Position numbers: made by a program | Origin: an uncultured Methanosarcinales archaeon | Lineage (GTDB): Archaea; Nanobdellota; Nanobdellia; Woesearchaeales; GW2011-AR9 | Length of the DNA: 64,000 nucleotides | Assembly: GCA_964362365.1 (NCBI GenBank) | Contig: CAYIEF010000002.1 | Coordinates: 908-64,907 of the forward strand | Direction of reading: 5' to 3' | Shown here: positions 54,001-57,000 of the stretch, piece by piece | How the letters are laid out: every line of letters begins with the position of its first letter | Numbering within the stretch: position 1 is the stretch's first letter

Positions 54001-57000
54001 GGAAGAACTACTGTAGATAGAAGCGGTTTGCTTACGCCCGCTTGTAATTCTCTTGGTAGTAAGATACAGTTTCTGAGAGGTGTTGGTCCACAAACATTAG
54101 CTTTAGTTACTGGTCAAACCGATCTTTTTGTGTATGATCCTCCTGGATTAAGTTTTTGGGATGCGTACCCGGCCATGCCTATTATACAAGCTCATGGGGG
54201 AGAAATATTTAATTGGTTGGGTGAAACACCACTTTACAACGGAACTTCTTTGAAATGCAATGGATTTGTGGCTATTGCTCCACATGTTAGTAAGGATGAA
54301 GTGCTTGTCAGGATTCAGAGAAGCAAGACTCAACCATGAACATTCACTCAACGATAATCTGATTTTTCTCTCTATAATAATATACCAAATACAAAATAAT
54401 ATAGGTTATCGTGGTTATAAAGGCTATTACATATTTAATAATCAGTGGTGGCTGAGAAATCAGCAGGGCGTACGTCAAGGCGATAACATTTGCAATAAGA
54501 AATATCACAAAGAGCAGCAAGCTGACACCCTTGGTGTCTCTTGTCTTTATAGTTTTAACCATCTGGGGAATAATCATTATTGAAAATAAGAAAGTGGCAG
54601 CCCATCCTAAGATTTGGGTTATGTCCATTATGCCTTGATAGATGGAAACTATTATTTAAATTGCACAGCACCACGATTTCACAACTTTTATAAATTAATT
54701 GAATAATCATTCACTTGGTTAGAGGTAAAGACTTTATGGTGAGTAAAAATGGAGAAGTTATACTATTATATCTGTTAAAAAAAGATTCTAAGAAACCGAG
54801 CATTAATCAGCTCTCTCGAGAATTACAAATCAGCGTGGGAAGCGCTCATAAGATCTTAAAAGATTTTGAAAAAGAAGGCGTAGTTGATTCTGAGGTAGTG
54901 GGAAATTCCATAATTTATTCTCTGAATATGGAAAATCTCAAAACCAGAGCTATTGTCAGTCAATTAGATCAAGTCGGCCAGTTCAAACGAAAAAAGAAAA
55001 CCAAGATAGTCTGTACAATAGGGCCGGCAACATCTGATCCAGAAACAATCAAACAACTTATTAAAGAAGGAATGGATGTAGTTAGGATAAATGGTTCGCA
55101 CGGCACGGAAGAATCTAATTTACGGATCATAAATAACGTGAGAAAAGCAGATCCAGCCCTCCCTATCTTGTTGGACATTCCTGGCAAAAAAATCCGCCTG
55201 AGCGACCTTGAACAAGAAATGCCAGTTACAAAAGGAGATTCTTTTACCTTTACTACCGATGATAATAATATTGATCCCACAAAGGTTTTTGTGCCTGCTT
55301 TAGATCTTCATCTTCAGCTGAAACCAGGAAACCGTTTTTTAGTAGATGATGGAACTATAGGTTTTCAGGTCAAAGAGATTAAAGAGAAAGATATCCTTTG
55401 CAAGGTATTAAATGATGGGGTGCTAAAAAGTAGAAAAGGACTTAATTTTCCCGATGCCAATCTTTCGGTTGATCCTATATCTCCCAAAGATATTCAACTT
55501 CTTCATTTTGCTGTTGAGCATAAACTTAACTTTGTAGGTGTTTCTTTTGCCAGCAATCGTGAACATCTCCAACGAATTAGAGGTATTTTAAATGATGCGG
55601 AAATAAAAGTGATTGCTAAAATTGAAAATCAGCAGGGATTAGCTAATTATACAGAAATAATTGATGAAGCTTATGGTGTTATGCTTGATCGTGGAGATCT
55701 CGGTTCTGAGACCGCTATAGAAATAGTTCCGCGACTCCAGAAAAAAATAATTAAAGAATGCAACTATGCAGGAAAACCAATAATTGTTGCAACACAGATG
55801 TTAGATTCAATGATTTCCAAACCTTATCCTACCAAAGCAGAAATAAGTGATGTGGCTAATGCAGTTCTCGATGGGGCCACCGCGTTAATGCTTTCTGCGG
55901 AGACTGCAGTTGGCTTATTTCCTTTGGATTCAGTGCGAATGATGACTGAAATTATTAATAATATTGAAGACCAGGTTCAGTCTACCTTGTTAGACACCGA
56001 AGTGCATGTGGAAAATTCTTCTGACATGGTGGGAAAGGCGATAAATCAGATTGTTCAAGTAGCTAAGATAGATAAAATATTCTGCTTGACTGGCGGCGGA
56101 TATAGCGCCAGGATGATTTCACGGCATAAAATAAAAGTTCCCCTCCTTGTTGCCACGTCCAGCACACGAGTTTATCAGCGCTTAAATCTCTTGTGGGGTG
56201 TGGAAAGAATCTTACTTACTACAGCAGTAGATAATACTAATTCTGCAGAACAAAAGAAAGAAGCAATTTTGGAAGCATTGCAGCAGGGGTTGTTGCAGAA
56301 AGATGACACAATTATTATTACTGGAGCAGTATTTCCCAACAACCGGAAGATCACTAATCTAATTGAGATTCATAAAGTCAATGAGCTGCTGGGATTCCTG
56401 ACTCAAAATGGAGACAAGGATTAATGGGACTTATAGAACCTCATGGTGGTAAATTGATAAACAGGGTTCTGCTAGGAAAAGAGTTAGAGAAAGCTCTTAA
56501 GTACGCTGCAAGTTTACGCAGAGTTGATGTATCTCTGGAAGTTATGCAGGATATAGTGAATATAGCTACTGGTGTTTTCAGCCCCCTAGAAGGATTTGTC
56601 TCAAAAGAAGATTATGAAAATATTGTTAATCATAAAAAACTTTCCAACGGAATTTCCTGGACAATTCCCATAATTTTTCCCATTGTTGAAAAAACCAATA
56701 ATGGGCTTAAAGAAAACGAGGATGTAGCTATTTATTATGAAAATAAGTTGAGGGCAATTTTTCACTTGAAGGAGAAATATGTCATAAATAAAAAAGAGAC
56801 TTTTCAAAAAGTGTATGGCACTGAGGATTTGAATCATCCGGGAGTGCGGAAATTATTGGAAAGTGGTTCTACTGTTCTCAGCGGAGAGGTTGACCTTTTG
56901 GACAGAAGCGTTTCTTCAGACGAAATTACTTGCCTTGATCCAGCAGAGATGAGGGGAATAATTCTTAAGAAAGGCTGGAAAACTGTAGTAGGCTTTCAAA

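Follow-up and report, generated by a model that had tools for sequence, protein, structure and literature searches.

The stretch of DNA analysed here (the window; 64,000 nucleotides of contig CAYIEF010000002.1, assembly GCA_964362365.1, from an uncultured archaeon) carries on its plus strand, at 54736..56424, a gene for a protein of 562 amino acids (plus the stop codon) in which an N-terminal winged helix-turn-helix (wHTH) domain is joined to a pyruvate kinase (PK). This gene, called HTH-PK for its helix-turn-helix (HTH) and PK parts, is followed on the same strand by sat, encoding a homo-oligomeric-type ATP sulfurylase (56424..57569; PUA_2 and ATP-sulfurylase domains in Pfam; NF003166 at 486 bits against a cut-off of 387), and by cysC, encoding adenosine 5'-phosphosulfate (APS) kinase (57572..58108; PF01583, 178.6 bits). 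The TAA stop codon of HTH-PK (56422-56424) shares its final A, base 56424, with the ATG of sat, which bears out the overlap described in the initial annotation and gives a TAATG junction; the ATG of cysC lies 2 nt past the sat stop.

The HTH-PK reading frame and its start

The initial annotation gave the HTH-PK open reading frame (ORF) the extent 54715-56424, which is the mechanical ORF (54715..56424, plus strand) opening at a TTG at 54715. Its frame and end stand, and its start probably does not, as the true start is likely ATG 54736 rather than TTG 54715: a Shine-Dalgarno-like GAGGT recognized by inspection (54722..54726, plus strand) is found 9 nt 5' of this ATG, which is also the start called in three independent assemblies (L001-L003, Hainich groundwater replicate samples of one population). 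The N-terminus MVSKNGE is common to the protein encoded in the window (P0001, an exact match) and its closest homologs, P0002 and P0003. The motif strings that had been quoted, IKVIAKIENQQGL, MLDRGDLG and SINQLSRELQISVGSAHKILKDFEKEGVVD, were all located in the ORF protein. Two ways in which the fusion might be spurious had also been raised. As to a start downstream of the HTH, the next Met already falls within the PK barrel and the domain junction is devoid of a start codon, while the joined frame is free of stops in about 20 homologs of 42-68% identity; because of both, the HTH cannot be skipped. As to a sequencing artefact upstream, a protein identical to P0001 is present on contigs of three replicate samples. 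In one homolog, P0008, the annotated GTG start (L009 6962-7001) removes helix 1 of the wHTH; in-frame codons upstream encode this helix (KILTNNSKKILSYL), yet no ATG, GTG or TTG precedes them, so either a non-canonical start or a sequence error is present there.

Conservation of gene order in DPANN archaea

Metagenome-assembled genomes labelled Woesearchaeota, Nanoarchaeota or 'archaeon' (DPANN) are the source of both P0001 and its full-length relatives. The search for further HTH-PK fusions and their neighborhoods that had been suggested returned HTH-PK proteins of 545-573 aa with 42-68% identity from about 20 DPANN archaeal lineages, and these archaeal proteins are monophyletic in a neighbor-joining tree (95/100 bootstrap). 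Besides the window, 13 independent loci were fetched (L004, L006, L008, L009, L093-L096, L098, L099, L101, L103 and L140). The order HTH-PK, sat, cysC was found in the window and in L004, L006, L009, L093-L096, L099, L103 and L140; the contigs of L008 and L098 stop within sat, and that of L101 stops after the PK. Wherever the contig runs on, the order is kept, down to 42% identity, in agreement with the earlier view that HTH-PK leads a sat/cysC operon.

The PK part retains the catalytic residues

The PK part consists of an A/B (barrel) domain (54994..55935, plus strand; PF00224, 335 bits), which contains the complete catalytic residue set together with the subfamily motifs described below, and a confidently modelled C-terminal alpha/beta domain (56029..56373, plus strand; PF02887, 72.9 bits), in PKs the usual effector and tetramer-interface domain. 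The NCBIfam equivalog model TIGR01064 (pyruv_kin) matches at 456.6 bits against a cut-off of 306.4, and solved PKs match at about 280 bits over residues 86-553, covering the barrel with its inserted B domain and the C domain. The AlphaFold model of HTH-PK has a predicted local distance difference test (pLDDT) score of 86.7. The earlier description of a complete PK domain in this ORF is thus confirmed.

In the alignment, R117, N119, S121, D147, K295, E297, D321, T353, S387 and E389 are invariant or nearly so. We take these to be the equivalents of R72, N74, S76, D112, K269, E271, D295, T327, S361 and E363 of rabbit PK, a mapping that rests on conserved motifs and family knowledge. While the catalytic residues are retained, the near-universal motifs RLNFSHG, MVARGDLG and PTRAE are replaced by RINGSHG, MLDRGDLG and PTKAE. 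In K+-independent PKs, position 117 is Lys, 113 is hydrophobic and 120 is L, I or V (PMC8835810); D147-I-P-G-K-K152-I-R-L155 of HTH-PK fits this pattern with Ile at 113, Lys (K152) at 117 and Leu at 120, and has Pro instead of the usual Gln at 114. We therefore predict from these residues that the PK part is a catalytically intact PK of the Lys117 (K+-independent) type.

An xDRGDL subfamily of PKs associated with sulfation genes

The PK domain of HTH-PK belongs to a subfamily marked by the motifs xDRGDL, PTKAE, R-x-N-[GA]-S-H and D-[IL]-P-G-x-K-[IV]-R, where ordinary PKs instead have xARGDLG, PTRAE, RLNFSH and DTKGPEIR or DLQGPKIR. A genome scan with one genome per GTDB species gave at least 80 PK loci, and all counts in this paragraph refer to the matches listed, which include no archaeal HTH-PKs. 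One of the two scan patterns also matched canonical PKs, and 72 canonical loci served as the negative control. The signature changes run throughout the sulfation-linked subfamily and were found in 0 of 72 canonical PKs. Six of the eight xDRGDL loci lie beside sat/cysC or sulfotransferase genes: four beside sat, three of these also with cysC, and two overlapping or abutting a Sulfotransfer_3 gene; of the remaining two, one is in a glycan cluster and one is unlinked. By comparison, neither sat nor cysC occurred within 8 kb of any of the 72 canonical loci (8 versus 72 loci; Fisher p = 9e-8 for any sulfation gene and 4e-5 for sat). The ATP sulfurylases observed with xDRGDL PKs are of the Sat type only, without the CysN GTPase.

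The nearest HTH-less relatives of the archaeal proteins, P0019 from a marine bacterium and P0020, are encoded in cysC-sat-PK operons, and the signature clade splits from canonical PKs with 77/100 support in the tree. At four bacterial loci with cysC-sat-PK or PK-Sat (L010, L012, L018 and L177), common neighbors encode MaoC dehydratase-SDR, FkbH/HAD, acyl carrier protein, Methyltransf_21, an AsnB-like amidotransferase, DUF7033, WbqC and a Na+/H+ exchanger; this recurring set suggests a conserved pathway to a sulfated, acylated surface product.

The association extends to gene fusion. A search with P0015, a 935-aa HTH-PK-Sat protein, as the query uncovered P0269 (PK-PK_C-PUA_2-Sat, on one contig), P0277, P0280 and P0281 (a PK barrel without C domain joined to Sat, on several contigs and from several samples) and P0275 (PK barrel-Sat-APS kinase, on one contig), and every PK-Sat(-CysC) fusion protein carries xDRGDLS. 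Because these independent fusions differ in architecture, they are strong evidence that the PK works together with the sulfate-activating enzymes. The tie between PK and sulfate activation noted at this locus is thereby upheld by both neighborhood bias and fusions, and the finding is more general than an HTH-PK fusion at one locus. The accompanying statement that sulfate assimilation does not normally involve PK is true of textbook PKs and fails for the xDRGDL subfamily. Together, these sequence comparisons suggest that xDRGDL PKs form a distinct subfamily dedicated to sulfation systems in bacteria and archaea.

Two other explanations of the PK bear on these data. Under the first, HTH-PK would be a housekeeping glycolytic enzyme whose place before sat and cysC is a neutral accident of a compact genome, with the HTH regulating central carbon metabolism. 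DPANN genomes are small and often retain only lower glycolysis, and this is the single PK in the 64-kb window; gene order kept over 13 loci, a sulfation link in unrelated bacteria set against 0 of 72 canonical PKs, the fusions with Sat and CysC and the stop/start codon overlap all count against it, making this explanation very improbable. Under the second, the PK-like domain would have changed its function and use another acceptor or donor in sulfonucleotide metabolism (for example a different nucleotide, or a reaction serving ATP sulfurylase directly), so that 'pyruvate kinase' would be a misnomer for the xDRGDL subfamily. The subfamily-wide swaps to xDRGDL, PTKAE and RxN[GA]SH, an extra basic residue in DIPG[RK]KIR, the separation from canonical PKs in the tree and the barrel-only Sat fusions, which lack the regulatory C domain and have no cysC nearby, would all fit such a change. 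On the other side, every known residue that binds phosphoenolpyruvate (PEP), Mg2+ and the nucleotide phosphates is conserved, the NCBI equivalog model for PK is passed, the DxxGxKIR changes are of a kind found in ordinary K+-independent PKs, and no neighboring gene points to alternative chemistry. We consider a changed function unlikely, though it deserves more weight than the housekeeping explanation.

A winged-helix domain of a DPANN-wide family

The N-terminal domain (residues 1-81; 54736..54978, plus strand) is composed of three helices, a beta-hairpin wing and a linker helix, which the AlphaFold model places at H4-15, H23-30, H34-46, E50-55, E58-63 and H68-81. The pLDDT stays at about 78-93 across residues 1-70 and declines towards the linker, at residues ~81-84. 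Pfam HTH_24 is matched at 22.1 bits, just above its cut-off of 21.9, and MarR_2 is matched under its cut-off; Foldseek retrieved ArsR/SmtB, MarR and AspA repressors (including SqrR, MepR and CzrA) with a probability of 1.00, and some of these structures include DNA. An N-terminal HTH before the PK, as had been proposed, is therefore present, in the form of a wHTH spanning about 80 aa.

A profile search with this domain found 509 relatives among 1.84 billion representatives. Those other than HTH-PKs are mostly proteins of about 200 aa, distributed DPANN-wide, in which the wHTH is joined to a minimal nucleotidyltransferase. The recognition helix ISVGSAHKILK is almost invariant over HTH-PKs and paralogs, and free-standing paralogs with the same recognition helix occur in the same habitats. 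The window itself encodes, at 50219-50530 (plus strand), a stand-alone minimal nucleotidyltransferase of 103 aa (NTP_transf_2/Polbeta), a catalytic domain of the type to which the wHTH family is usually fused.

A putative palindromic operator on the HTH-PK promoter

A TATA-box-like TTTATAAA, found by sequence inspection at 54687..54694 (plus strand), presumably belongs to the promoter from which the HTH-PK operon is transcribed; the upstream regions of HTH-PK genes contain TTTATAAA boxes, as is typical for promoters in archaea. Between this box and the start codon stands a perfect palindrome, TGAATAATCATTCA (54700-54713), a putative operator that begins 5 nt past the TATA box and stops 22 nt short of the ATG. 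Its right arm is extended as ATTCACTT (54709-54716), and the whole element occupies 54700..54716. The exact pattern TGAAT-N4-ATTCA occurs once in the 64-kb window and not at all in 1.11 Mb of 80 unrelated loci. When k-mers in the 100-nt upstream regions of nine HTH-PK genes were ranked free of assumptions, only the TATA box (TTTATAA/TTTATAAA) and TGAATAA/ATTCAYTT emerged at the top. The half-site is about 99-fold enriched in HTH-PK upstream regions, and none was found upstream of eight HTH-less bacterial operons. The same 14-mer is present at the same position in L095, and also in L099, L101 and L103, which were fetched after the motif had been defined. Among the five out-of-sample HTH-PK loci, fetched by the wHTH profile, three have the identical 14-mer (P about 3e-12) and two have it with 1-2 mismatches.

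The palindrome is also a feature of the wider family. In 63 distinct loci of non-PK wHTH paralogs drawn from L100-L176, TGAAT-N4-ATTCA was found in 63/63, lying 25-36 nt (one at 43) upstream of the start, against a background of 0.011 per 110 nt. The sites share an anchored consensus, ATTTATAAA, that contains the TATA element; the palindrome is mostly TGAATAATTATTCA, with another ATTCA half-site after the TATA box (consensus ATTTATAAACATTCATTAATAATGAATAATTATTCACTTT), and the core is 94% identical while the outer flanks are 42% identical. Because the palindrome precedes all 63 paralogs and its core is conserved over its flanks, the wHTH family appears to consist of sequence-specific autoregulators. 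Archaeal repressors classically bind between the TATA box and the point where transcription starts. These comparisons indicate that the HTH-PK promoter carries a wHTH-family operator to which binding is predicted, and we infer from its position that the sign of regulation would be repression. The regulatory role that had been considered for the HTH gains support from this family-wide operator on the gene's own promoter.

The N-terminal domain might alternatively be a relic, or an oligomerization or partner module, with a separate paralog binding the palindrome. The borderline HTH_24 score and the free-standing paralogs described above would be compatible with this. Since the recognition helix is nearly invariant, the wing and helices are modelled confidently, and the operator accompanies the fused domain and is absent at HTH-less operons, we regard a non-binding domain as the least probable of the alternatives considered here, with hardly any weight.

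A wider regulon in the window was also considered and rejected, as ATTCACTT half-sites at 16026, 41997, 52025, 52695 and 62599 correspond to the chance rate and near-palindromes at 16149 and 35945 are at chance level. Two of these half-sites are intergenic: 52695-52702 lies 55 nt upstream of the CDP-OH_P_transf gene and 62599-62606 lies in a divergent GT2/DegT region.

Genomic surroundings and the likely fate of the sulfonucleotide

Neither a reductase for 3'-phosphoadenosine 5'-phosphosulfate (PAPS) nor a sulfite reductase was found among the annotated genes of the window neighborhood or of any annotated locus, suggesting that the module serves sulfation, not assimilation. Of the sulfate-assimilation setting named in the initial annotation, sulfate activation is retained and assimilation is not. 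Judged by its annotated genes, the cluster in which HTH-PK, sat and cysC sit is a surface-glycan/lipid cluster, and the pathway context is probably the sulfation of glycans or lipids. A GT4 glycosyltransferase gene (58101..59135, plus strand; gene call in L001-L003; Pfam Glycos_transf_1) overlaps the cysC end, so the transcription unit probably runs on into glycan genes; further glycosyltransferase genes follow in the region from 58101. Sulfotransfer_3 genes flank bacterial subfamily PKs in L014 and L051, and no sulfotransferase was found among the neighbors in L018, L019 and L023. For these archaea, the module suggests sulfated surface molecules, which bears on host attachment.

Upstream of HTH-PK, an IMPase-family phosphatase is encoded at 53494..54339 (plus strand; PF00459; CysQ and HisN models match below their cut-offs only). 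It is, tentatively, a candidate phosphatase of the module for 3'-phosphoadenosine 5'-phosphate (PAP). In five archaeal loci, a PHP-family phosphoesterase occupies the slot after cysC (L004 11382-12242; L009 11246-12136; L093 5608-6528; L095 10348-11235; L096 6544-7431), and the equivalent slot holds an IMPase-family protein in the window and in a bacterial locus (L010 9598-10416) and an NT5C nucleotidase in L094 (9821-10369). As the PHP and IMPase families both include known 3',5'-bisphosphate nucleotidases, this slot is probably that of a PAP phosphatase, and the alternation of PHP, IMPase and NT5C proteins looks like non-orthologous replacement of that enzyme.

Membrane proteins of the CDP-alcohol phosphatidyltransferase family are encoded with the archaeal PK-sat-cysC module at nearly every locus. 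One is encoded in the window (52757..53461, plus strand; PF01066), and others in L004 (12293-13111, 14553-15227), L006 (7119-7844), L008 (4354-5761), L009 (10389-11207), L093 (1212-1832, 6535-7191), L094 (5285-6777, 10922-11680) and L095 (11262-12074). Since (P)APS and a CDP-alcohol formally share the layout nucleotide-phosphate-X, these proteins could be unconventional sulfotransferases; that they are the missing sulfotransferases, with (P)APS replacing the CDP-alcohol, is pure speculation. Two sets of candidates for a recognizable sulfotransferase gene were rejected: unannotated genes of ~272 aa by cysC/PHP proved to encode divergent CDP-OH_P_transf proteins, and a 432-aa ORF in the window (59132-60430, plus strand, co-directional with the operon) encodes an NTP_transf_5 region and a dTMP-kinase-like P-loop domain.

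Other genes of the surroundings encode a 2-hydroxyacid dehydrogenase (50989-51987), a methyltransferase (51994-52695) and, on the minus strand at 54344-54628, a semiSWEET-like PQ-loop/MtN3 protein of 94 aa. The divergent semiSWEET-like gene may be co-regulated with HTH-PK because the two share the operator-bearing intergenic region of 107 nt. Phosphonate-type genes adjoin the module at L095 (13584-15686) and L009 (12229-15638), comprising a CTP-transferase/PEP-mutase fusion, a thiamine pyrophosphate-dependent decarboxylase and B12-binding radical SAM enzymes, and thus a second PEP-consuming pathway is present in the module's cluster at these two loci. At L006 (14438-17125, minus strand), an 895-aa UDP-glucose/GDP-mannose dehydrogenase contains an intein (Intein_splicing and LAGLIDADG matches). 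Rfam and tRNA scans of the 64-kb window gave no match.

A proposed enzyme-repressor of PAPS synthesis

Based on these data, we propose with moderate confidence that HTH-PK would be a bifunctional enzyme-repressor at the head of the PAPS-synthesis operon; the protein would renew ATP or clear ADP at the expense of PEP, and would also autoregulate its operon. Sat catalyzes a strongly endergonic reaction, and with APS kinase a dead-end E-ADP-APS complex can arise (PMC3734648). In vitro, PK and PEP regenerate ATP and avoid the inhibition of APS kinase by ADP (PMC9885120), and by analogy a PK beside Sat and CysC would do the same in vivo. In such a system, the PK would turn PEP and ADP into pyruvate and ATP beside Sat and APS kinase, re-supplying the ATP spent by both enzymes and clearing ADP, the APS-kinase product that would trap this enzyme in the dead-end complex. 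PEP hydrolysis would thereby pull the otherwise unfavorable activation of sulfate, with the net reaction sulfate + ATP + PEP -> PAPS + PPi (pyrophosphate) + pyruvate. In this scheme, PK activity and the benefit drawn from it, ATP regeneration or ADP clearance, are what we infer from the conserved residues and the gene context. The wHTH would bind TGAATAATCATTCA between the TATA box and its own start codon, and its occupancy would block the initiation of transcription, so that the first gene product would autoregulate the whole operon. What the PK body binds as its ligand (PEP, an adenylate or a sulfonucleotide may be proposed) probably modulates the binding to DNA. ATP regeneration and a regulatory HTH, which had been put forward as alternatives, both stand as readings; the either/or does not, since the two roles are not alternatives. 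Operation in reverse, with Sat, CysC and PK generating ATP, was considered and rejected, as no source of PAPS or APS is apparent and bacterial members adjoin sulfotransferases.

The PK body could instead be mainly a sensor, that is, HTH-PK would be a transcription factor that reads PEP or adenylates and licenses PAPS synthesis when energy allows, catalysis being incidental. An operator on its own promoter and a C-terminal effector domain kept in all HTH-PKs would be expected of such a protein, and archaeal regulators with enzyme-derived sensor domains have a precedent in RbkR (PMC5397151). HTH-less bacterial members and PK-Sat(-CysC) fusions, however, show the PK-sulfation link without a DNA-binding domain, and the catalytic residues are invariant across 40% sequence divergence, which argues for selection on catalysis; a pure sensor is accordingly improbable.

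The in silico support for the functional link and for the operator is strong. Several points nevertheless weigh against the proposed enzyme-repressor. The substitutions Ala->Asp before RGDLG, Phe->Gly/Ala in RLNFSH and Arg->Lys in PTRAE are near the active site or subunit interface, and the reaction or nucleotide specificity could therefore differ. Coupling through the free ATP/ADP pool would bring no local advantage unless the enzymes associate, and such association is suggested solely by the fusions in other organisms. Some barrel-only PK-Sat fusions, such as that at the P0281 locus, have no cysC within 13 kb, so the immediate partner of the PK may be Sat, not CysC. Sulfotransfer_* families were not found among the annotated genes of the window neighborhood and of all archaeal loci. 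Of 14 HTH-PK promoters, four (those of the more distant L004, L006, L008 and L094) have two direct ATTCAYTT repeats 20-21 nt apart in place of the palindrome, an arrangement that might accommodate a tetramer bearing four DNA-binding domains, and in a further three the sites are degenerate. Lastly, wHTH-nucleotidyltransferase paralogs could bind the operator in trans.

A bolder generalization is that xDRGDL PK, Sat and APS kinase together would constitute a PEP-driven PAPS synthase, the PK of DPANN archaea serving as the operon repressor as well. We offer it tentatively, as possible and still rather doubtful. If true, this synthase would join the CysN GTPase and fused pyrophosphatases as a third natural means of paying for sulfate activation. 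Its range would extend from marine bacteria to DPANN archaea, in some cases as a single polypeptide; in the DPANN archaea, one protein would tie the PEP/adenylate (or sulfonucleotide) state to both pathway flux and transcription. The equilibrium of ATP sulfurylase is among the least favorable in central metabolism, and the drive for Sat-type enzymes is usually credited to pyrophosphatase and APS kinase; a PK subfamily devoted to this task, in some cases joined to Sat and CysC, would be a further solution, powered by PEP. Thousands of genes labelled 'pyruvate kinase' but distinct from the glycolytic paralogs would thereby receive a new annotation, and the natural PK-Sat-CysC fusion would be a ready-made PAPS-regenerating catalyst for enzymatic sulfation. 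For the DPANN archaea, which are almost uncultured and have few predicted regulators, the analysis gives a transcription-factor family whose operator is defined (TGAAT-N4-ATTCA), together with a first predicted regulon.

Comparison with known systems

In the literature, for which coverage was incomplete so that a prior description is possible, no paper was found on a PK in sat/cysC operons, on a PK-Sat fusion or on an HTH-PK. Likewise, no report of a natural PEP-driven coupling to sulfate activation was found, such coupling being known only as a laboratory trick (PMC9885120).

Among PKs, HTH-PK resembles canonical and K+-independent enzymes (PykA/PykF, G. stearothermophilus PK 2e28) in its three-domain architecture, catalytic residues and 35-40% identity, and the K+-independent ones in Lys 117 and the hydrophobic residue at 113. 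Different from canonical PKs, it has the xDRGDL, PTKAE and RxN[GA]SH motifs, falls in a separate clade with a sulfation-gene context in place of a glycolytic one and, in its archaeal branch, carries an extra wHTH. VcIIIPK, the third PK of Vibrio cholerae, was considered as a characterized member of the subfamily and rejected, being 50% identical to the PykA-type VcIIPK and without a sulfation link.

With winged-helix repressors of the ArsR/SmtB and MarR types (SqrR 6o8k, CzrA, MepR-DNA 4lln, AspA), HTH-PK shares the N-terminal fold of 80 residues at template modelling (TM) scores of 0.6-0.78, and a palindromic operator whose 5-bp arms are about one helical turn apart and which overlaps the promoter. 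Unlike them, it has only 14-28% identity to these proteins, lacks their metal- or thiol-sensing residues and has a whole enzyme as its effector domain.

The closest functional analog is RbkR, the archaeal riboflavin kinase/regulator (PMC5397151), and more broadly the enzyme-repressors of the BirA, NadR and PutA type. In both RbkR and HTH-PK, an N-terminal winged helix is joined to a small-molecule kinase and operators lie upstream of genes of the enzyme's pathway; in HTH-PK, both domains are in one polypeptide and the operator is upstream of the functionally related sat-cysC. By analogy, the ligand of the enzyme domain would be expected to set DNA binding. Unlike RbkR, the enzyme of HTH-PK is a glycolytic kinase of ~480 aa, normally tetrameric and not pathway-specific, and the regulated pathway, sulfate activation, excludes the PK reaction itself. 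Its wHTH, moreover, belongs to a family specific to DPANN that is otherwise joined to minimal nucleotidyltransferases.

On the enzymatic side, product-removal systems are known, namely diatom APS kinase-ATP sulfurylase-pyrophosphatase fusions, bifunctional PAPS synthases and the GTPase-coupled CysDN (PMC3734648, PMC4373884). As in these, an energy-releasing or product-removing activity is joined to Sat and APS kinase by operon or fusion and would pull the endergonic step. The drive differs, in that it would come from the PEP-driven conversion of ADP to ATP and not from PPi or GTP hydrolysis. The diatom pyrophosphatase, attached to the same enzymes, is thus a parallel solution to the PK, and P0275 (PK-Sat-CysC) is formally a PAPS synthase with an added module.

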